UHGV virus genome: UHGV-0135630
Length of the DNA: 57,694 bases
Reading direction: 5' to 3' (one strand)
From: a virus
The notes under the pieces are model-generated. The model did not search any database. It saw only the letters and a program-made list of their open reading frames with translations, and was not told where the DNA came from. Position numbers and translations under genes: made by a program. Below are positions 18,151-56,920 of the stretch, in pieces; the first letter of the stretch is position 1, and each line of letters starts with the position of its first letter.

Positions 18151-18682
18151 ACCGCTGACAGCATACACAATCAACTACCGCTGATAGCATATCGAGAGTC
18201 TATCTCACCGCTCACAGCATACTTTACTCGATTTTTTACCGCTGACAGCATACTTAAGACATTGCATGAATAATGTGTACCGGTATGGGTATAACCAGAA
18301 CAAAATTACCGCTGGCAGCATACGAATGTCTGACATATGCCATTAATTACCGCTGATAGCATATCCAAACAAAAATTCCTCAATAAAACACCGCTGACAG
18401 CATACGTTCTATCAGGGAGTAGCAGGCAATAAATGCCTTTCACTACAAGCAATCAGCGCAATAGCAATAGAATGTTAGTGAGCGCAAACCTATATGGAAT
18501 GCACTCTTCGAGGTTAGTAACCACTGGGGAGGTATGACAGAGCATTGAGTGGTGATAGATGATTTACCGCTCACAGCATACGTTCATCTCACTATACCGC
18601 TGGTAGCATATCTTTAACCGTTCACAGCATACTTTTCAGAAAAATAGCCGCTGATAGCATACATTTCACCGCTGACAGCATA
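18151..18682. repeat. iteron array, about 12 copies of ACCGCTGACAGCATA (incA-like)
   Basis: Direct 15-bp repeats with minor variants (GATAG, CACAG, GGCAG, GGTAG) at irregular spacing, immediately downstream of repA. Confidence 0.8.
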
Positions 18683-19777
18683 TCAAAGCAGTTTGAGACT
18701 ATTGGAAAGGATCTCAATCATCTTGATATTTTCAGGCGTCAAATTCTGCGAAAGTTCGGTTATCTTGTTGATAATGTTCTGTTTGGCATCAATTTCCCCA
18801 GCTTTCTCATCTGGTTTTTTGGGTTCGATGTCTTCAGGTTTTGGCGGTGCGACTTTGAGTTTTGGATTGCGGCTGTGAATCTGGATATAGATCGACCGCC
18901 CACGCTTAATCTCGCTGTATTCGAGATAGCCCAAATCTTGGAGAGCTTTTAAGCCGTTACGTATAGTCTGATTCTGCGAGCTGACATTCCTGCTACTCAA
19001 ATTGAGTCGCGCACGCAATCGAGCAAGCGATACCGGCGCAGGCTTGGTTGGAAGACTTTCGATGAAGGTGTACAGAGCCTGTGCTGTTTCTTTGCGTGGT
19101 AGCTTATTGATAACCTTTAACTGCAAAAGAACCTTATGGTCAAAGCGATATAGTTCGGCCAGCTTCGGTTCTGCATAGAACACCACCGTATCTTTCTGCT
19201 CGTTGTAGTCCACGCTATTGATGAGGTGCACCATCAGAAGCGAGATCTTGTTAGAGCCGTCGACGTTCTTTTCTTCATACGTTCTCTGGAAAGACAGAGT
19301 TGTACGCATGATCTTCAAAAGACTGTTTGTAAGCCGGTCGCGGAGTGTTTTGCGGATCTGTGACGATGGATAGCCACAAAACTTAGCAAATTTCGTGATG
19401 CTTAACTCGACACGACCGTTAGGTTCGCCGTATTCTGCCAGCGAACGCACAACGCCCACCCACGTTTTGAAATCATGATCCATGTCGAGACGAGGACCGG
19501 TTATCTTGATATCGGAATAGCCTTCAGAACGGGCTACTTCGAGCTGGACAAGCTCCTTTGAAGCATCGATCTCATTTGGCTTGTTACGTTTACTGTATTT
19601 TGTTCCCTTAAGCGTGGGGACGAACAACCCCAGTCGCATCAACGCAATTGGTTGGACTGTATTGTTGCTATTAGGGACAAGTTCCCCTGTGTACAATTCA
19701 AGGGAACCTTCTTCAAAGTTGTCGATGTTATCTTCTACTTCTTTGTTATTTTTACCTTTTTTATTTTTTGTGGACAT
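18683..19777 (-). CDS. repA: replication initiator RepA (P1/RepFIB family)
   Basis: NSNNTVQPIALMRLGLFVP...YSDIKITGPRLDMDHDFKTW...AQALYTFIESLP...IQIHSRNPKLK recalls P1 RepA; start set to internal ATG downstream of the upstream iterons. Confidence 0.85.
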   Translation of the reverse strand: MSTKNKKGKNNKEVEDNIDNFEEGSLELYTGELVPNSNNTVQPIALMRLGLFVPTLKGTKYSKRNKPNEIDASKELVQLEVARSEGYSDIKITGPRLDMDHDFKTWVGVVRSLAEYGEPNGRVELSITKFAKFCGYPSSQIRKTLRDRLTNSLLKIMRTTLSFQRTYEEKNVDGSNKISLLMVHLINSVDYNEQKDTVVFYAEPKLAELYRFDHKVLLQLKVINKLPRKETAQALYTFIESLPTKPAPVSLARLRARLNLSSRNVSSQNQTIRNGLKALQDLGYLEYSEIKRGRSIYIQIHSRNPKLKVAPPKPEDIEPKKPDEKAGEIDAKQNIINKITELSQNLTPENIKMIEILSNSLKLL

Positions 19778-19797
19778 GTGGACACCTTTGTCATTCA

Positions 19798-19898
19798 ACC
19801 GCTGACAGCATACTTGATTTGCCGCTGACAGAATACCAAAAACAGTTGGCAGCATACGGTGAACCGCTGACAGACTATCAATTACCGCTGACAGCATA
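19798..19898. repeat. upstream iteron set, 4-5 copies (incC-like, part of origin)
   Basis: ACCGCTGACAGCATA and variants overlapping the repA promoter region. Confidence 0.7.
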
Positions 19899-19929
19899 CA
19901 TGAACATGACTTCAGACCAGTCGTGGCGC

Positions 19930-20015
19930 GGCTTACAGCGATCGGGGATCTTATTTGATCTATATAAGGATCTATCTATGGATCTCTTTATTAGGATCTA
20001 TCCTGTGGATATGTG
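19930..20015. promoter_or_regulatory. origin-like segment: five GATC sites in short repeats plus DnaA-box-like TGTGGATAT
   Basis: gatcggggatcttatttgatctatataaggatctatctatggatctc...cctgtggatatg. Confidence 0.5.
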
Positions 20016-29256: not shown

Positions 29257-30126
29257 ATGAACTTTACCAAACTGACTGACCACCTGAAACTTGCCACCGA
29301 TCGACTCATTGGATTTAAGCCAGAACCATATGAGTTGCATGAAGGTCATGGTGTAGCTACTGAAAGTATTTACAAGATGGTCGATCAGTTTCATGAACTC
29401 TTCCAGCATCCGAGACGCGTTATGCCGACACCAGAGCTGCTTCGTCTCCGTGCAAGCCTGATTCATGAAGAAGCTGTAGTGGAAGGTATTCCTGCCGCAA
29501 TGAATGGGGATATTGAGCAACTGCTGGATGCAATGGCCGACTTTTTATACGTTGGTGTTGGTACGATGGTCGCCATCAAAGGTGGTATTTCTACCGGCAT
29601 GACCTATTACACGCAGGAACAGAGCATTGATCGCTTTATGCAGACAATTTTTGTGCCCGGTAACACTGTTTTCGATGATATGGCAATGCCATTTCAGGAA
29701 GCTCGTGAGGCGTCATGTATGCTCGAAGAGCTGGCAGATAAACTTGAGAACAAGACTGTTAAGGATTCTGAGCTGATTCAGGAACTGCGCCGTGTCATGA
29801 ACAAAATCTATGTGGCGTGCATGATGACCTATCGACTGGCTGATTTCCTCGGTATCAATGTAGTCGAGCTGGTTGGCGAAATTCATCGGTCTAACATGAC
29901 AAAATTATGGCCTGCTGATGTTGAGGAACGTCGCCAGGCTGTGGCCAACTGCAAATACGACTCTTCAGATCTGGGATTCCGCCATGCTGATGGTACCGAT
30001 AAGATGATCGGTTTTCGAATTTCCGATGGAAAGATTCTGAAGTCTCCAACCTATAGTGATGTCGATTTATCCTCCTTTGTTGAGCAAGCTAAAGCCTCAG
30101 CAATGTACGGAATGATCAAAAAATAA
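29257..30126 (+). CDS. MazG-like nucleoside triphosphate pyrophosphohydrolase (tandem all-alpha domains, putative)
   Basis: 289 aa with two EExxE/D-containing helical repeats; between nrdB and thyA. Confidence 0.5.
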   Translation: MNFTKLTDHLKLATDRLIGFKPEPYELHEGHGVATESIYKMVDQFHELFQHPRRVMPTPELLRLRASLIHEEAVVEGIPAAMNGDIEQLLDAMADFLYVGVGTMVAIKGGISTGMTYYTQEQSIDRFMQTIFVPGNTVFDDMAMPFQEAREASCMLEELADKLENKTVKDSELIQELRRVMNKIYVACMMTYRLADFLGINVVELVGEIHRSNMTKLWPADVEERRQAVANCKYDSSDLGFRHADGTDKMIGFRISDGKILKSPTYSDVDLSSFVEQAKASAMYGMIKK

Positions 30127-45919: not shown

Positions 45920-47020
45920 TCACACTGCGCGGAATGCGATTTCGCCAGGTATTACTTCGCCTTGCCAATACATTTGTGCGGCAACGCGATCTGCGAGGTC
46001 ACGGTAAATAGCAGTAAATTCGCTGTCTGGGCGACTAATAACGGTTGGTGTTCCGTTATCCAGATCTTCACGAAGTGAGATATGAAGAGGCATTTGGCCT
46101 AACAACTGCGTGTTGTATTTCTCTGCCAGCTTCTCTGCACCACCGGTGCCAAAAATTGGCTCGTGATGACCGCAGTTACTGCAAATATGCACACTCATGT
46201 TTTCGACGATACCCAGTACCGGCACTTCGACTTTTTCGAACATCACAATGCCTTTCTTCGCATCGATCAGCGCGATATCTTGCGGCGTAGTTACCACCAC
46301 AGCACCCGTTACAGGAATGTTCTGCGCCAGCGTCAACTGAATATCACCAGTGCCAGGCGGCATATCGAGAACGAGATAGTCCAGATCAGGCCACAATGTT
46401 TCCTGCAACATCTGCATCAGCGCCTTGCTAGCCATCGGTCCGCGCCACACCATTGCATTGTCGTCGGTGACCAGATAACCAATAGAGTTGGTTGCCAGGC
46501 CATGAGACATGATAGGTGCCATGTGAGTACCGTCCGGTGAGGTTGGACGTTGGTTTTCCGCGCCCAGCATGGTTGGAATTGATGGCCCGTAGATATCGGC
46601 ATCCAAAATACCAACTTTCGCACCTTCAGCAGCCAACGCCAGTGCCAGGTTTACCGCCGTTGAGGATTTACCCACGCCGCCCTTGCCTGAGCTTACGGCG
46701 ATAATATTCTTAACGCCATTAATGCCTGGTTGGTTTTTGACGCGCTTAAGCGTGGCAATGTTGTACGACAGCTTCCAGTCAATAGCCTTTGCGCCAGTGA
46801 TACGGAGCAGATCACCACTACATTGCTCTTTCAGGTCTTCAAAAGGCTTATTCCACACAAAAGGCATGATCAGTTCGACATGCAGTGTGTCATCCATCAA
46901 CGCAACATGGTGTAACGCTTTAAGCGTTGTCAGGTTGTGTTTCAGGGTTGGGTGCTGAAAATTAGCCAGCGTACCGGCTACCATTGCTCTCAGGGCATCC
47001 GGCGATTTGGACTCGCTCAT
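45920..47020 (-). CDS. apbC: iron-sulfur cluster carrier ATPase ApbC/Mrp
   Basis: 366 aa; Walker A SGKGGVGKSS; CxxC motif; collinear with E. coli Mrp as recalled. Confidence 0.9.
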   Translation of the reverse strand: MSESKSPDALRAMVAGTLANFQHPTLKHNLTTLKALHHVALMDDTLHVELIMPFVWNKPFEDLKEQCSGDLLRITGAKAIDWKLSYNIATLKRVKNQPGINGVKNIIAVSSGKGGVGKSSTAVNLALALAAEGAKVGILDADIYGPSIPTMLGAENQRPTSPDGTHMAPIMSHGLATNSIGYLVTDDNAMVWRGPMASKALMQMLQETLWPDLDYLVLDMPPGTGDIQLTLAQNIPVTGAVVVTTPQDIALIDAKKGIVMFEKVEVPVLGIVENMSVHICSNCGHHEPIFGTGGAEKLAEKYNTQLLGQMPLHISLREDLDNGTPTVISRPDSEFTAIYRDLADRVAAQMYWQGEVIPGEIAFRAV

Positions 47021-47177
47021 CCCGTCTCCTTTATTTTAATTTGCGCAATTGTCGCCTTGTAGTGTACTCCAGCTACGACATTTAATCATTTATGAGAAAT
47101 GCTGTTATCACATGGCAGACATAAGACCATTTTGTTACTATCAAGCCCCTTTTCACTACAAAGAAGTAATGCCTACT

Positions 47178-49211
47178 ATGACCCAAGTCGCGAAGAAAAT
47201 TCTGGTGACGTGCGCACTGCCGTACGCTAACGGCTCAATCCACCTCGGCCATATGCTGGAGCACATCCAGGCTGATGTCTGGGTTCGTTACCAGCGAATG
47301 CGCGGCCACGAGGTTAATTTCATCTGTGCCGACGATGCCCACGGTACGCCGATCATGCTGAAAGCCCAGCAGCTTGGTATTACCCCGGAGCAGATGATTG
47401 GCGAAATGAGTCAGGAGCATCAGACTGATTTCGCAGGCTTTAATATCAGCTACGACAACTATCACTCGACGCACAGCGAAGAGAACCGTCAGTTGTCTGA
47501 GCTTATCTATACTCGCCTGAAAGAGAACGGTTTTATTAAAAACCGCACCATCTCTCAGTTGTACGACCCGGAAAAAGGTATGTTCCTGCCGGATCGTTTT
47601 GTGAAAGGCACCTGCCCGAAATGTAAAGCGCCAGATCAATACGGCGATAACTGTGAAGTCTGCGGCGCGACCTACAGCCCGACTGAACTGATTGAACCGA
47701 AATCGGTGGTTTCTGGCGCTACGCCGGTAATGCGTGATTCTGAACACTTCTTCTTTGATCTGCCCTCTTTCAGCGAAATGTTGCAGGCATGGACCCGCAG
47801 CGGTGCGTTGCAGGAGCAGGTGGCAAACAAAATGCAGGAGTGGTTTGAATCCGGCTTGCAACAGTGGGATATCTCCCGCGATGCGCCTTACTTCGGTTTT
47901 GAAATTCCGAACGCGCCGGGTAAATATTTCTACGTCTGGCTGGACGCGCCGATTGGCTACATGGGTTCCTTCAAGAATCTGTGCGACAAGCGCGGCGACA
48001 CTACCAGCTTCGATGAATACTGGAAGAAAGACTCTACCGCTGAGCTGTACCACTTCATCGGTAAAGATATCGTTTACTTCCACAGCCTGTTCTGGCCAGC
48101 AATGCTGGAAGGCAGCAACTTCCGCAAGCCGACTAACCTGTTTGTTCATGGCTATGTGACAGTGAACGGCGCGAAGATGTCCAAGTCTCGTGGCACCTTC
48201 ATTAAGGCCAGCACCTGGCTGAATCATTTTGACGCTGACAGCCTGCGTTACTACTACACTGCGAAACTCTCTTCGCGTATTGATGATATCGACCTGAATC
48301 TGGAAGATTTCGTTCAGCGCGTAAATGCCGATATCGTCAACAAAGTAGTGAACCTGGCCTCCCGTAACGCTGGCTTTATCAACAAGCGTTTTGACGGCGT
48401 GTTGGCAAGCGAACTGGCTGCCCCTGAACTGTACAAAACCTTTACTGATGCCGCTGAAGTTATTGGCGAAGCGTGGGAAAGCCGCGAATTTGGTAAAGCG
48501 ATCCGTGAAATCATGGCGCTGGCTGATCTGGCTAACCGCTATGTCGATGAACAGGCTCCGTGGGTGGTGGCGAAGCAGGAAGGACGCGATGCCGATCTGC
48601 AGGCGATTTGCTCTATGGGCATTAACCTGTTCCGCGTGCTGATGACTTACCTGAAACCGGTACTGCCGAAACTGACAGAACGTGCGGAAGCATTCCTGAA
48701 TACGGAACTGACCTGGGATGGCATCCAGCAACCGCTGTTGGGCCACAAAGTGAATCCGTTCAAGGCACTGTATAACCGTATCGATATGAAACAGGTGGAA
48801 GCACTGGTGGAAGCATCCAAAGAAGAAGTGAAAGCAACTGCCGCGCCAGTTACTGGCCCGCTGGCTGATGATCCGATTCAGGAAACCATCACCTTTGACG
48901 ACTTCGCCAAAGTTGACCTGCGCGTGGCGCTGATTGAAAACGCAGAGTTTGTTGAGGGTTCTGACAAGCTGCTGCGCCTGACGCTGGATCTCGGTGGCGA
49001 AAAACGCAATGTCTTCTCCGGCATTCGTTCTGCTTACCCAGCCCCACAGGCACTGATTGGTCGTCACACCATTATGGTGGCTAACCTGGCTCCGCGTAAA
49101 ATGCGCTTCGGTATCTCCGAAGGCATGGTGATGGCTGCTGGCCCTGGCGGGAAAGATATCTTCCTGTTAAGCCCGGATGCTGGTGCTAAACCTGGCCACC
49201 AGGTTAAGTAA
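47178..49211 (+). CDS. metG: methionyl-tRNA synthetase
   Basis: Begins [26 protein letters not shown] (HIGH-type motif), KMSKS present, C-terminal tRNA-binding domain; start moved to the internal Met of the 720 aa ORF. Confidence 0.95.
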
Positions 49212-49942: not shown

Positions 49943-50128
49943 ATGCTTAAAGAAGACTCATATCTACTAAAGGCGCTTGAAATGCGTGGCGTTGAACCTA
50001 CAGTGAAAAACGCTCACGATTTCTACCTTCAGTTTTCGCCAGAGCTGAAACAGCTCATAAATAAATATGGAGTGAATGACTCCAGCGTCAAAGCCATGAT
50101 AGATGATGAATTAGACCATCTCATCTAA
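49943..50128 (+). CDS. hypothetical protein
   Basis: 61 aa. Confidence 0.35.
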   Translation: MLKEDSYLLKALEMRGVEPTVKNAHDFYLQFSPELKQLINKYGVNDSSVKAMIDDELDHLI

Positions 50129-50239
50129 CCAAACCGTTGATAATGGCGGTCATAATTTGATTTTTTTCTATAAGAATCCGTTGATCGCCACTACTCCCCT
50201 TCCATACCTGCAATCACATCCTTAAATATCAATAGGTTA

Positions 50240-51000
50240 TAGTTGTTTATACAAACAAGAAAACAACTGAATAACAGATCAACGAAACGTCAACGCTTTC
50301 ACCCGATTTGGTCTAAAAAATTGACGTTTTCACACATCACTGCTTATACCCGTAATTCTACGCAGCAGACAGCGCCACAGCGTCCAATTTTCACCACAGA
50401 CGACCCAACACACTACCAACAAAAACACACGCTCAAAATCGTTCCCGTTGCGTTACATAACCATATAAACAACTTATTTTCAGGCATAACAAAACAACTA
50501 AATAACACATATTCCATTACCAAAAACAACCAACCTCTTTATGGCAGGCTACCGAAAAGACCCACCTCTTCTTCCCAGGCTACCGGACAACCAACCTAAC
50601 TTTCACAGGCAATCCGAAAACATTCATACGCGCGATACCCACGACACGCCATTACCCAAACAGCGAAGAAACACCAGAATCACTGAAACCCCAACGAAGC
50701 CTGTAACCGCAAGGTTTCTCTCAATCCCAAAAGACACGAAACATAACAATCACGGGAAACGCCATTACCCAATACACGAATAACTACAAAAGCCTTTCAC
50801 ACACTCCAGACAAACAACTCAAACACAATAACGAAAGGAATCGCCCACCTGCCATTACTCCATACACGGAGAAGAACAATCACCAAAACGACGAGAACAC
50901 CCCATAGAAGAACCACCGCAAAACGAACGAAACCACATACACCGACAGAGAGAACAACACACCCAATTCACCAACAGAAATAGTCGCCGCATAGAACGTT
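50240..51000. repeat. A+C-rich, G-poor noncoding region with dispersed GCCATTACCCAA-like and CAGGCTACCG-like repeats
   Basis: Strong strand compositional skew over about 760 bp; ORFs here look spurious. Confidence 0.5.
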
Positions 51001-51189
51001 CTGGTAGGAGTGAGCATTAACGCCTATAGAGAGGTTGAAACAGACAAAACACGAAGAAAACACAACATGTATAGCGAACAAGACAGGTATGTATAAGTGG
51101 GGAGGGAAGGAGGGGTGCCGCCTCCTTTTTCGTATTTATTCAACTCCTGATTTTATCCCCCGTAACACCCCTACGGTCAGCCTTCGGTC

Positions 51190-51335
51190 CATACAGGGAA
51201 AAGGCTGCATCCCGCTACAGAAACGGCTGGGTTGCCTTCGGGGAACGGCTGGAGGTTTTCAGGGAAACGGTCGAGTTGCCTGTGTGGATTTCGGGAAAAG
51301 GCTCGATGCCGGTTCAGGAACGGCGGCGTACCGGT
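51190..51335. repeat. array of about 6 GGGAAACGGCTG-like repeats at roughly 20-30 bp spacing
   Basis: cagggaaaaggctg, agaaacggctgg, ggaacggctgg, gggaaacggtcg, gggaaaaggctcg, ggaacggcggcg. Confidence 0.5.
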
Positions 51336-51687
51336 ATAGCGAGAGGGAGAGTTGCGGCTACCCACCTGTAATGTGCGGGAAGAAGAGAGGCGCTCACGTG
51401 CAGGCGAACTTACTTACCGCTGGATTCCCTCTGAATGCCCAACTACAGCGTAATTGTGCCAGACAGTCAGCGGGTCACAATCGATTTCAGTAGGTTTTCG
51501 GGGAGAGGATTATTCTGCCCACCAGCCATCTTCGGCCACTAAATCAGAATAATGTAAAAAGTGTACTCGATACTGAACCTGAAAACTCACTGCCAAAACA
51601 ACATTCACCGGAATAAAATCCTTTTTAGCCTGTGCGTTATTGCGATAATAACACCAACGAGAAAACAAGTTGTTTAAGGATTGCTTT

Positions 51688-52017
51688 ATGTTTGCAAATA
51701 TCGACATCAACCAAATCAAGAAATTAACTCAAAAAGAGTTTGATCAGTTTTATGAGTTAGAAGGTTGGTCTTCCACTCTGATCAATTCGCGGTGGGTGCT
51801 TGAGCTGATGACTCGTGATGACGCACCTGCTTTGATGATTTGCGACATGGGTGAAGATGCTGACTTTATGGATATGAGCGAATTTTGTGTGGACACATAC
51901 AACCGCAGCCAGAAGTACTACTTCACATGCGATAGCGAAAATGACGTGATTTCTAAGGTCTATCTTCACCTCGTCCAGCATTGGGACGTTCAGGAGTTTC
52001 TTGAAGTATTCGAGTAA
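51688..52017 (+). CDS. hypothetical protein
   Basis: 109 aa from ATG after AAGGA; motif A upstream. Confidence 0.45.
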   Translation: MFANIDINQIKKLTQKEFDQFYELEGWSSTLINSRWVLELMTRDDAPALMICDMGEDADFMDMSEFCVDTYNRSQKYYFTCDSENDVISKVYLHLVQHWDVQEFLEVFE

Positions 52018-52170
52018 CCCCAACCAAAGCCAGCATTGCTGGCTTAATTTCTCTATAGCCGCAGGGAAGAACCTGCATATCGCTCATGCACCTGATCAAT
52101 ATGCTTTGTAGCCGTTTTCTTACTGGTATTATTTACGCCATTGAGAAAACAAGTTGTTTACGGAGTTGTG

Positions 52171-52482
52171 ATGAAAAAATCATTGGTTCTTGGTCTGGAC
52201 AAAGACCAGAAGAGAAAAGAGAAGCCTGCGCTGGTTGCTCAATTAACTTTGCTGGACATCGTTGCCAATGGAACCTCTATTCGTCTGTTCCGTGAAACAG
52301 CGGTGTCTTTCGATAAAAACACCTTTACTCGTTATGTAATGAATGTTCGTCGCCAGCGTGGAAAAGGCTGGGTGGCATTTCAAAGAATGTGGCCGGAACA
52401 TCAGCTCGAACTGGCTTTGATGGAAGTTAACCGCGTGGCCCAGCAAGAGATTCAGAGAGCATCAGTGATGGCAATAGCCTGA
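52171..52482 (+). CDS. hypothetical protein
   Basis: 103 aa from internal ATG; motif A upstream. Confidence 0.45.
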   Translation: MKKSLVLGLDKDQKRKEKPALVAQLTLLDIVANGTSIRLFRETAVSFDKNTFTRYVMNVRRQRGKGWVAFQRMWPEHQLELALMEVNRVAQQEIQRASVMAIA

Positions 52483-52608
52483 TAATGTGCAAGTGGTAAT
52501 TAGTCGACCGTACGACAGCCCCGCCATCCTTACGGGGCTTTTTTGTATTGTAAGTACATACTTACGATCATAGAATATAAAAATAACCAAAACACTACGG
52601 AGAGTGAA

Positions 52609-53004
52609 ATGACCGTTAAACGCGAAAAACTGACAGTTGATGTTTACTATGCCTCTGAAACCGCCGAAGGTAAGAATGTGGCAAAAATTACCGTTGTTAC
52701 GTACAACACCGAAACTGGTGCCGAAGTCCAGGCCAGTACGATCGTGCGTAAAGGTGATGCCTCCGGCGGCGAGTACGCGACTCAATACCAGTCCATTCTC
52801 GATGCAACTGACCCGCTGCTGCTGAAAATCGAGAACTACTTCCGCCAGGTTGATGAAGAGGTGTTTGAAACCATGATGAATATGGTTAACACCGTATTCG
52901 CCTCCAGCCTGAACACCAGCACCACCTGGATTGGCCAGTACGGTCTGCGCATTACCTCTGGCATTCCTGCCGATACCTTAATCCCTGAAAGCGTATTCGC
53001 TTAA
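52609..53004 (+). CDS. hypothetical protein
   Basis: 131 aa from internal ATG with GGAG RBS. Confidence 0.45.
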   Translation: MTVKREKLTVDVYYASETAEGKNVAKITVVTYNTETGAEVQASTIVRKGDASGGEYATQYQSILDATDPLLLKIENYFRQVDEEVFETMMNMVNTVFASSLNTSTTWIGQYGLRITSGIPADTLIPESVFA

Positions 53005-53121
53005 TCCTCTTTAAATGGCGCGCAAACCGCGCCATTTAATTATGCCCGATAACAATTTGTTTTCTGCCTTATCTGATTTGTGAAAATGATTTCACTGAAG
53101 CAACTTAATAAGGAAACCATC

Positions 53122-53496
53122 ATGGGACTTGATATCTATATCGAGACACAGCCTAAAAACGATCTGAATAACGAGGCATCCAGAAAGCAGGTTGCTTACT
53201 TCCGTAAGTTCAATGCGCTCGTTGGGTGGATGGAGCGCAACGTAGGTGAAGTCGAAAATTGTGAGCTTTTAGAATTAACGATGAATGACATTTGTCTTCT
53301 GAAAGCTCATTTGATGCACATAAACGAAAGCAATTGCGAAGAGTACTTGCCTACTCGGGAAGGTTTTTTCTTCGGCAGTCAGGAGTACGACGAAGGTTAC
53401 TGGCATGACGTGGATAAGCTGAAAAAACTTGTGGAAGACCTGATCAGGAACCACGACTTTCACAATAACAGACTGACCTTCTGCGCCTGGTGGTAA
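53122..53496 (+). CDS. hypothetical protein
   Basis: 124 aa from internal ATG with AAGGAAA RBS. Confidence 0.45.
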   Translation: MGLDIYIETQPKNDLNNEASRKQVAYFRKFNALVGWMERNVGEVENCELLELTMNDICLLKAHLMHINESNCEEYLPTREGFFFGSQEYDEGYWHDVDKLKKLVEDLIRNHDFHNNRLTFCAWW

Positions 53497-53498
53497 AT

Positions 53499-53642
53499 AT
53501 GGGCGATTTCAAGAAACGCCTGAAGGAAAGAGCCGAGATGGTCAGAAAGCAAAACGCCTCTTCTGTCATCAGATACGCAAGGCAGTTTAGTCGCAACAAC
53601 AAATCAGTTGAGGAAAAGATCCTTAGCGTAATCGGTCGATAA
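53499..53642 (+). CDS. hypothetical small basic protein (47 aa, not in ORF track)
   Basis: Hand translation MGDFKKRLKERAEMVRKQNASSVIRYARQF...; followed by hairpin aaggccatcagcattggtggcctt. Confidence 0.25.
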   Translation: MGDFKKRLKERAEMVRKQNASSVIRYARQFSRNNKSVEEKILSVIGR

Positions 53643-53846
53643 TTATTAAGGCCATCAGCATTGGTGGCCTTAAATGACCATCCTGTTTCCCGCAGGCTAA
53701 AAACACCAACCTCTTACCTCCAGGCAACCGACAAACCCACCTGTTCCCGTCCGGCTACCGCAACTTTCCACTTTGACGCCTTATTCGTACAACGATAATT
53801 AACACCAACAAGAAAACAATTTGTTATTTACGATAAGGAATTAATC

Positions 53847-54329
53847 ATGAATTTTATCGCTACTGTAAACGCACCCGCACATGGCAATATCGCTGTAACG
53901 TTCTCTGACATTGAAAAACGAGTACTTGGTGCATGGCGCGACAATGAGACGGTAGAACTGTCAGCACAAGAAAAATGCATTATTGCACGCGACATCATTG
54001 GCAATCGTCGTTACTCGCGGGTATTTGAGAAAGCGTATGTGGTAAATTCTGGATTCGGAACGTTCGTCTTCCCGGTACGCTCCGGGCGATTCTGCCAGTC
54101 CAAGCTGATTGAGTTCGCTACGCAGATTTCTGTCTGGATTAAAACTCAATCGTCGTTCAAATTTTCCGACGATGAAGCAGTATCGCAGGGGATGCGGATC
54201 GCCAACAATGCGATTAAATGCAAAAACATTACGTATACCGCTGGCGTTGATACATGGAAACTGTTTTGCGCTAACTTTATGCTGAATGTATACGCCAGCA
54301 ACCGCATCCACATCCTTGATGGCGTATAA
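53847..54329 (+). CDS. hypothetical protein
   Basis: 160 aa; motif A upstream. Confidence 0.45.
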   Translation: MNFIATVNAPAHGNIAVTFSDIEKRVLGAWRDNETVELSAQEKCIIARDIIGNRRYSRVFEKAYVVNSGFGTFVFPVRSGRFCQSKLIEFATQISVWIKTQSSFKFSDDEAVSQGMRIANNAIKCKNITYTAGVDTWKLFCANFMLNVYASNRIHILDGV

Positions 54330-54369
54330 CTGAGAAGAGGGCCAGAAACGGCCCTTTCTCTATAGCCAC

Positions 54370-54490
54370 CAGCTGCCGCAGGGAAATTTTCAGAAACGGC
54401 GAGGAACGCATTCATGAGCCGACGGGAAACGGCCAGATTTTTTTCGGGAAACGGCTGCATTCGCCTTTATGTAGAAAAAAACATCGGGAA
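54370..54490. repeat. second GGGAAACGG-like repeat array
   Basis: cagggaaatttt, agaaacggcg, gggaaacggcc, gggaaacggctg, gggaagctg; same family as 51190..51335. Confidence 0.45.
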
Positions 54491-54914
54491 GCTGTTGGAA
54501 TCCAACCAGCGGTTGTCGGACAGGTGAGCTGGGAAAATTATGATGACTTTCGTCGCCTGAGACATCCAGATTTCTTTCGTAGCGTAATCACATACGTGAT
54601 TAAGTGGTGTGATTATGTGAAAAATCACGCGCACATAATACGCGAGCGGATACAGAACAAAACAAAATGCCGATCCGCGCCGACAAATAAACGCGGATCA
54701 CATAGCAAGACTAAAAGCCAATGATTAACTATGCGCTATAGCGCAATATAACGCGTTTTAAGCGCGTTAATGCGTTAAGTAATGGGTATGTACTGGCAAG
54801 GATATAAAAGCGCGTCTATGGCGTTATTTTGGCGCTTATTGTTATGTTGTTGGAGTGAGTTAAAGACAATAAAAAACGTGCCAATGATGGCGCGTTATGG
54901 TGGGAGTATTGGAA

Positions 54915-55449: not shown

Positions 55450-56109
55450 TTACGCTTTAAAAGCATCAGCTAAATAATTGTAGAAATCATTCTTGATAAA
55501 GCGATATTGCTGTGTACCAGCTTTGGCGCTTCCCATTCCTTTGACTTTCTCAACAAGTCCGAGACGTTCGCAAAGATTGATTAGCTGGTTAGCTTGAGTA
55601 TAGCCAGCGTCCAATTTAATTTCGCACGCTTTTTTAGCTTCATTCATTAAATCGAAAACAGCGCCATTGGTGAACGTGTCGATCTCGTCGTTAATCATAT
55701 CGATTAAAGCGAATACACGAGATCCTGACATATCAGCGACGGAATAAACACATTTACCAGCTTTAATGGATTTAACCAGATAAACCAGTTTTTCCAGTGA
55801 ATAACTATTAGTCATTGCATCACGGAAAAATACTTCTGGCGCTTGTTTGCTTGCTTTAATCGCATAGTAGAAAACAGAGCATAATTTTTCGTCTTCTACT
55901 GCGTTTACGACGTTGTTGATGAAGTAAGCAAGTTTAGTGGTCGCAGCTTGCATATTTGCTTTGTCTGCTTTGGTGTGCGTACCATTTTTATAATGTTCGT
56001 TATATGTTTGAGTTGCCAGATCTGCTTTTTCGCGCAGCTCGTCGGATACAATAGATGCAGCTTCAATGATGGACTTTTTAGAAATGATAATGTTAGCCAT
56101 GATGGACAT
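55450..56109 (-). CDS. hypothetical protein
   Basis: 219 aa. Confidence 0.5.
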   Translation of the reverse strand: MSIMANIIISKKSIIEAASIVSDELREKADLATQTYNEHYKNGTHTKADKANMQAATTKLAYFINNVVNAVEDEKLCSVFYYAIKASKQAPEVFFRDAMTNSYSLEKLVYLVKSIKAGKCVYSVADMSGSRVFALIDMINDEIDTFTNGAVFDLMNEAKKACEIKLDAGYTQANQLINLCERLGLVEKVKGMGSAKAGTQQYRFIKNDFYNYLADAFKA

Positions 56110-56395: not shown

Positions 56396-56920
56396 TTAAA
56401 ATGGAAGGATTCGTTCGACCCAATCGAAGAAAACAAGTATTTTTCTGCCGTCTTCTAACTTAAGAGTGACCTGGCAAGCATCAACGCCTCTTGACACCCC
56501 TTCAATTTCACGACCGTCTGCCATGTAGACCCTTATAGATTGGTCGTTTTGATAAGCCTTGCGACATATCGCAAAAAAGTCACGGCGTGATGGCTGATTG
56601 TCAACATAGTCTGGATGTATTGTTAGCCTACCTTTGAACTCGCGAGCAATGCCATCGATTACACCTGATTCAATTGTGCTAATGCGCTCAAGTGGGAGTC
56701 TTATACGATTTTCTTTATCATATGGAAGCGGGCATAAATCTAGCTTATTGCGGGAAGGCATTGTCCCCTGAACGTACATGCAAAACACCTGACCGTCTTC
56801 AAGCGTGACTCTTACAGGAATGTTGTTCTTCCGCCAGAACATAAGTATGTTTTCAGCATGTTCGTAGTCTCGCGGCCAGACTTCAGCCGGTATGCCGTAG
56901 GTGATGTCCAATGTTCTCAT
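56396..56920 (-). CDS. hypothetical protein
   Basis: 174 aa; start overlaps upstream gene stop by 4 nt. Confidence 0.5.
   Translation of the reverse strand: MRTLDITYGIPAEVWPRDYEHAENILMFWRKNNIPVRVTLEDGQVFCMYVQGTMPSRNKLDLCPLPYDKENRIRLPLERISTIESGVIDGIAREFKGRLTIHPDYVDNQPSRRDFFAICRKAYQNDQSIRVYMADGREIEGVSRGVDACQVTLKLEDGRKILVFFDWVERILPF

Follow-up and report, generated by a model that had tools for sequence, protein, structure and literature searches.

The 57,694-nt stretch of phage-plasmid DNA analysed here (the window) contains two arrays of a short, iteron-like repeat, designated A and B, which enclose a small cassette of genes. The original prediction had described a second array lying about 3.2 kb from the first, and reading of the sequence confirmed it, the separation in the window being 3.15-3.2 kb. 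The arrays are iteron-like in their spacing, orientation, paired layout and unit-wise expansion, and they do not qualify as Rep iterons, partition centromeres or sponge RNAs. Our tentative interpretation, held with somewhat less than even confidence, is that they are phased DNA-binding sites for a protein encoded by the element itself and that they pair around the cassette. From the sequence patterns described below we infer that the arrays act as DNA, which proteins are the candidate binders, and that A and B communicate.

Sequence comparison assigns the window to the SSU5-like phage-plasmids. Over bases 50100-54700 it shares 97.5% identity with Escherichia phage Cyrano (= pLF82 of E. coli LF82), and three further E. 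coli phage-plasmids match the same bases at 93-97% identity. A more sensitive similarity search found the array region in 897 plasmid records, including those from Klebsiella (432), Escherichia (224), Enterobacter (91), Yersinia (55), Salmonella (49) and Citrobacter (25). The annotation of Cyrano places the window between integrase/repressor genes and UvsW-helicase/ParB-like genes. At window positions 45920-49211, a full-length methionyl-tRNA synthetase gene lies divergent from the gene of a 366-aa Mrp/NUBPL-type P-loop ATPase (PF10609, E 2e-102), which is labelled MinD in Cyrano; this pair is an unusual cargo for a phage-plasmid.

Units, spacing and conservation of the two arrays

The units of both arrays share a core of about 9-10 nt, (G)GGAAA(C/A)GG(C), which in every case lies on the plus strand (Table 1), and a T-tract (TTTTC) precedes many of them. 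Spacing between units is 22, 22, 22, 31 and 22-24 nt in array A and 48, 33 and 22 nt in array B. It had been conceded with the original prediction that the similarity of the arrays might reflect chance matching, and this objection was not upheld. When matches with two or fewer mismatches were collected within 150 nt, the densest clusters held 5 and then 4 matches, while the largest cluster in 1000 first-order Markov simulations held no more than 3. Nine of the 13 plus-strand matches to G[AG]AA[AC]GGC in the 57.7-kb window fall inside the two arrays. The window as a whole shows no surplus of loose matches (48, with 39 +/- 7 expected), and the signal of the arrays therefore resides in their clustering. 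In the complete 108-kb Cyrano genome, clusters of the motif occur at the two array sites only.

Table 1 Positions of the arrays, their units and neighbouring features in the window
Feature	Position	Strand	Description
D1 array a	50523..50619	+	three 30-31-bp units (ACCnACCTCTT...CAGGCTACCG), ~673 bp upstream of array A
Intrinsic terminator	51104..51131	+	strong; ends the AC-rich non-coding unit; array A begins ~60 nt downstream
Array A	51194..51325 (units 51196-51323)	+	six iteron-like units; seen in 7-12 lineages
Array A unit	51196	+	core GGGAAAAGG
Array A unit	51218	+	core CAGAAACGG
Array A unit	51240	+	core GGGGAACGG
Array A unit	51262	+	core GGGAAACGG
Array A unit	51293	+	core GGGAAAAGG
Array A unit	51315	+	core CAGGAACGG
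Apparent shortened duplicate of the array B start	52048..52072	+	TTTCTCTATAGCC + GCAGGGAAG, 3' of the p109 terminator
p103	52171..52482	+	103-aa basic orphan protein, pI 10.5; candidate binder
D1 array b	53671..53764	+	three D1-family units, just 5' of the p160 promoter and ~672 bp ahead of array B
p160	53847..54329	+	160-aa basic orphan protein, pI 9.2; always directly upstream of array B
p160 terminator hairpin	54337..54359	+	GGGCC-AGAAAC-GGCCC + TTTCT; loop holds the first unit of array B
Array B	54341..54495 (units 54343-54493)	+	four full and two degenerate units (one a half unit)
Array B unit	54343-54351	+	CAGAAACGG, within the p160 terminator loop
Array B half unit	54378-54386	+	GCAGGGAAA
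Array B unit	54391-54399	+	CAGAAACGG
Array B units	54424-54432, 54446-54454	+	GGGAAACGG
Array B degenerate unit	54485-54493	+	CGGGAAGCT
Terminators of converging minus-strand genes	54628..54700	-	3' bound of the array B gap
p219	55450..56109	-	conserved orphan facing array B; 61% identical in a distant lineage; alternative candidate binder
FljA-like protein	56396..56920	-	PF03614, E 5e-81; weak Hfq-like C-terminal match; candidate RNA-level partner

Spacing statistics were drawn from 107 distinct arrays in plasmids, phages and IMG/VR contigs. A spacing of 22 nt clearly predominates (148 intervals), and both the array A pattern (22, 22, 22, 31, 22) and the array B patterns (48, 33, 22 or 34, 22) recur despite differing spacers. 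In alignments covering Escherichia, Citrobacter, Enterobacter and Klebsiella elements together with pHCM2, SSU5 and pMT1, the cores are invariant and the spacers have diverged. The same core, at 24-nt spacing in both arrays, is found in a distant IMG/VR lineage (L159, L215, L250, L226 and L142) in which the proteins near the arrays share only 31-61% identity with their window counterparts. Joint occurrence of the two arrays in other genomes was likewise borne out, with 28 loci holding both in constant orientation at a distance of 1.46-4.23 kb and with 2 to 6 genes between them. In pMT1 only array B is present, since IS1541 occupies the site of the upstream part. Searchable publications on SSU5, pHCM2, pMT1, Cyrano and phage-plasmids yielded no account of these arrays.

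Arrays gain or lose complete units, PhiR41_1 being shorter by 22 nt, L166 by 23 nt and L223 by 44 nt. As these gains and losses are not multiples of three, the arrays are judged to be non-coding. Coding repeats across array A were considered and rejected on the same grounds, its spacings and indels being 22, 23, 31 and 44 nt. Public annotation places ORFs over array A in Cyrano (CYRAN_104, L001 8965-9369) and in SSU5 (SSU5_109, L255 5507-5704). The non-triplet unit indels, together with the lack of any family match for the ORF across array A, indicate that both of these ORFs are spurious.

The original prediction further proposed that the arrays share an upstream segment. The segment itself is real, TTTCTCTATAGCC...GCAGGGAA (alternatively delimited as CTCTATAGCC...GCAGGGAA) being common to 52048-52072 and to 54355-54386 at the start of array B; array A, however, does not share it. 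To judge from its sequence, the stretch at 52048-52072 appears to be a shortened duplicate of the beginning of array B. Four of the eight CTATAG sites of the window lie in one 3.7-kb stretch (51024, 52053, 54360 and 54736) in which about 0.5 would be expected, and two of them are inside the TTTCTCTATAGCC segment 3' of cassette terminators.

The cassette between the arrays and its surroundings

The genes between the arrays encode p109, p103, p131, p124, p47 and p160; each has a promoter-like site and a terminator, and all six belong to PHROG families of unknown function. In all 28 loci with both arrays, p103 and p160 lie between them, whereas the remaining cassette genes vary from locus to locus, and in L172 and L183 these two genes alone make up a minimal cassette. 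The two constant proteins are basic, p103 bearing a disordered, lysine/arginine-rich N-terminal tail, whereas the variable cassette proteins are acidic. Modelling of p160 gave a confident structure with no fold match in the PDB, and the fold search with p103 returned weak, mutually inconsistent matches only. Searches of Pfam, PHROGs, NCBIfam and PDB sequences and three large homology searches returned, for the cassette and neighbour proteins, 'hypothetical' matches only, confined to this plasmid family. The variable genes at 49943-50128, 51688-52017, 52609-53004 and 53122-53496 encode small acidic proteins (pI 4.2-4.9), and p61 has a sub-threshold match to the T7 gp5.9 RecBCD inhibitor (PF25708, E 0.006). 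The small acidic cassette proteins may be anti-defence or DNA-mimic proteins.

Both arrays are set apart from promoters, the nearest promoter-like site being about 250-290 bp or more from either of them. Past the end of array A the next such site is found after about 290 nt. Array B lies between convergent terminators, because the p160 terminator (more narrowly delimited, 54339-54354) bounds it on the 5' side and the minus-strand terminators at 54628-54700 bound it on the 3' side. The stem of the p160 terminator covaries between lineages.

The varying content and length of the inter-array region raise the possibility that the arrays are leftover tandem duplications with no binding role, serving as a homologous linker for the exchange of cassettes, each a promoter-gene-terminator unit, between phage-plasmids. 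The copy of the array B start behind another cassette terminator (at 52048), the promoter-proximal element shared by each cassette gene and the gains and losses of whole units are all in keeping with such an origin. We nevertheless consider it very improbable, since neutral repeats would not hold a 9-10-nt core and a 22-nt register while their spacers diverge, and here core and register are held across lineages whose neighbour proteins fall to 31% identity.

Several other non-coding features were recorded in the vicinity. About 780 nt at 50321-51131 are non-coding, strongly A+C-rich and G-poor, with a GC skew down to -0.56, and are headed at 50321-50350 by a conserved promoter-like site (TTGACG-17/18-TATACC). 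Internal repeats of this region include the three D1 units and three copies of GCCATTACCCA. Its layout is also found in the distant lineages L172 and L159, as is D1 array a itself. D1 units include an anti-Shine-Dalgarno-like CACCUCUU, and some units of D1 array b are partly complementary to the unit of arrays A and B, the G unit (CCTGTTTCCCGC). Possibly the region is a long non-coding RNA. An origin as a decayed p160 copy was rejected for it, blastx giving no p160 match and, as its sole match, a short and weak one to p76 (E 0.027). Window positions 50125-50585 (about 460 nt) have a 68%-identical counterpart in large Klebsiella plasmids of non-phage type, where no genes are annotated at that place, an example being L012 6001-6467 in the 227-kb K. 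pneumoniae plasmid p59062CZ_IncFIB.

A palindrome, tAAGAAAACAAnTTGTTTA, recurs about 17-20 times genome-wide. Its window sites are at 2319, 16554, 27992, 38223, 38952, 42670, 49295, 49346, 50466, 51662, 52146, 53049 and 53813, and Cyrano has further sites at 56, 81, 29258 and 32079. Most lie 15-45 nt ahead of start codons, including those of terS, parA and the helicase; the exceptions at 50466, 42670 and 49295 are non-coding or promoter-distal. The palindrome looks like a genome-wide operator, comparable to that of the P1 C1 repressor, or else a shared 5'-leader hairpin. A different palindrome, GGCTATAGCC, lies upstream of parA in Cyrano (29076).

Proposed phased binding sites compared with replication and partition loci

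According to our tentative interpretation, the arrays would act as double-stranded DNA, and a sequence-specific protein encoded by the phage-plasmid would bind one unit per two helical turns, so that a single helical face would be coated. The foremost candidates for the binder would be p103 and p160, with p219 next. Arrays A and B, once coated, could pair and loop out the 1.5-4.2 kb cassette, and the loop would then set or insulate cassette expression in the manner of paired operator clusters or handcuffed iteron arrays. The clustering of the units, their 22-bp register, the invariant cores, the whole-unit indels, the terminator-bounded gaps and the constant presence of p103 and p160 support this interpretation. 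The original prediction had regarded the arrays as typical of paired binding-site clusters, and this view is sustained in part: the register, cores, unit indels, transcription-poor gaps and constant bracketing of p103 and p160 agree with it, whereas no binding protein was found and the arrays match neither RepA iterons nor a Rep/Par gene pair.

Looping is plausible because two multi-site clusters stand 1.5-4 kb apart within one element, an arrangement that resembles the looping pair OL/OR of lambda and the ori/crr pair of P4. Unlike lambda OL/OR, the arrays are built of direct repeats and not of palindromic operators, none of their putative sites overlaps a promoter, and they have no assigned repressor.

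A second explanation is that the arrays are accessory cis-acting maintenance sites, either a lytic origin or replication enhancer, or dispersed centromeres for the type Ib ParA and its partner. Their iteron-like 22-bp phasing and their location in transcription-poor gaps would fit such sites. Iteron clusters lie kilobases apart in the P4 ori and crr, and centromere sites are scattered in N15 sopC. The element carries replisome genes of its own (helicase, primase, Pol III alpha, UvsW, UvsY and gp32-like) with no mapped lytic origin, which also counts in favour of this explanation. Similarly, the type Ib ParA gene (Cyrano 29307-29975) is followed by a gene for a 119-aa partner with a weak ribbon-helix-helix match, and the pair has no assigned centromere.

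Comparison with the incC and incA iterons that flank repA in P1/RepFIB replicons brings out both the strength and the weakness of this explanation. Rep iterons are direct repeats of 17-22 bp in a register of about 21-22 bp, and the arrays conform to this description. As with incC and incA, the repeats have a single orientation and a 21-22-bp register, two arrays are placed around genes, and copy number shifts by whole units. The G arrays differ from these iterons, however, in having no Rep-like gene, DnaA box or AT-rich element, and the actual replicon of the element is located elsewhere. The repA gene (18683-19897, minus strand) is flanked in P1/RepFIB style by ACCGCTGACAGCATAC iterons, about 10 downstream (18151-18687) and 4-5 upstream (19798-19903), which are unrelated in sequence to the G arrays. 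A GATC-containing repeat block at 19959-20002 adjoins the upstream iterons, and 18151-20002 as a whole is a textbook P1/RepFIB-type replicon. RepA iterons or an incA-like copy-control locus were therefore rejected as identities for the arrays, the true iterons differing in sequence and lying 31 kb away.

A theta-type origin at the arrays was rejected as well, there being neither a DnaA box nor an AT-rich unwinding element next to either array. In 50000-54800 no TTATNCACA site was found, and the single one-mismatch match to TTATCCACA is on the minus strand at 53409, inside the p124 coding region and far from the arrays. The sole 40-nt stretch with at least 33 A+T, at 53818, is beside neither array. 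No Rep-like domain was detected in any ORF neighbouring the arrays, and no initiator-like or NTPase gene lies within or beside the cassette.

As for partition, the arrays resemble parC1/parC2 of pB171 and parC of R1, in which two phased direct-repeat clusters surround a two-gene cassette and small basic proteins are encoded. In contrast to those loci, the cassette proteins contain no NTPase domain of the ParA or ParM type, so that the par-operon adjacency of known centromere arrays is missing. The ParA gene of the element is about 66 kb away, and the array motif is absent from the region upstream of parA. Taken with these observations, a maintenance role for the arrays appears unlikely.

RNA-level alternatives and the FljA-like protein

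A third explanation is that the units act in RNA, G(G/A)GAAAC motifs in read-through transcripts being bound by an FljA-like or other RNA-binding protein and serving as a decoy or autoregulatory target. A gene of the FljA family is encoded 2 kb downstream, and the family label of PF03614 is 'repressor of phase-1 flagellin'. A total of 831 plasmids, some of them from Klebsiella and Y. pestis, retain this FljA-like gene, and the protein is 55-79% identical in relatives. Klebsiella and Y. pestis are non-motile. The presence of the FljA-like protein points either to control of host motility or to a target within the element, and retention of the gene in non-motile hosts hints at the latter. FljA-type repressors block translation of fliC mRNA, according to PMC2652032 (citing Bonifield & Hughes 2003; Yamamoto & Kutsukake 2006).

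The arrays were compared with fliC leaders. The E. coli fliC 5'UTR and array B of the window have the 12-nt TGAGCCGACGGG in common (shuffle p = 0.008), the Salmonella fliC UTR and array B of pHCM2 gave a shuffle p of 0.025, and the p160 terminator loop, which reads UGGAAAC in most lineages, resembles the fliC hairpin GGGUGGAAACCC. The two shuffle results given are the only ones of 12 comparisons to reach a nominal p < 0.03; the other 10, among them four further same-host pairs, were not significant, and the 12-nt match falls mostly within a spacer that other lineages do not preserve. The arrays also recall CsrB/RsmZ and the FljA-fliC leader in their repeated GGA motifs, some of which can be placed in short hairpin loops, and in the nearness of an FljA-family gene. 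They are unlike CsrB/RsmZ in that they match nothing in Rfam, lack promoters of their own, give no signal in fold energy or covariation, and keep a strict register that is DNA-like.

Assays of RNA structure by computation gave little to suggest that the arrays fold. The folding of array A was indistinguishable from that of shuffled sequences on the two strands (z +0.18 and +0.67). Array B was unremarkable on the plus strand (z -1.18) and modestly low on the minus strand (z -2.11), where the energy derives largely from the complement of the terminator hairpin. RNAalifold analysis of 16 array B and 12 array A sequences yielded weak consensus energies, with convincing covariation in the terminator stem only and otherwise only predicted invariant stems of 3-4 bp. 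A stable RNA structure was therefore rejected, array A being within the shuffle range and array B marginal on the minus strand only. A known RNA family was likewise rejected, no Rfam match being obtained at E <= 5, including matches of the CsrB/RsmZ type.

Transcription of the arrays also bears on this explanation. A strong terminator shields array A, and neither array has a promoter of its own, no promoter-like site being found directly upstream of either. Fold energies and covariation lend no support to a structured RNA, and the strictly kept 22-nt spacing would be unexpected in a sponge RNA. Considering the evidence on both sides, we regard an RNA-level function of the units as distinctly unlikely.

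A more specific version holds that the arrays mimic the flagellin mRNA leader and that the Sm/Hfq-like, FljA-like protein binds the G(G/A)GAAAC units, either as read-through RNA or as DNA. In that case the regulator titrated or localised by the arrays would be one that silences host flagellin as well. This proposal is quite improbable in our estimation. If it were true, carriage of the phage-plasmid would be linked to host motility by a built-in decoy, and the decoy would be tuned by lineage to the fliC leader of the host.

SSU5-type phage-plasmids are very common among clinical Enterobacteriaceae and include pHCM2 of Salmonella Typhi and pMT1 of Yersinia pestis, and their biology is almost unexplored outside replication and virion genes. 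A strongly conserved non-coding element, phased and paired and invariably placed around the same pair of orphan genes, marks a discrete functional module. Should the module prove to control maintenance, the lysis-lysogeny decision or motility, it would offer a handle on the stability and spread of the elements that carry it.
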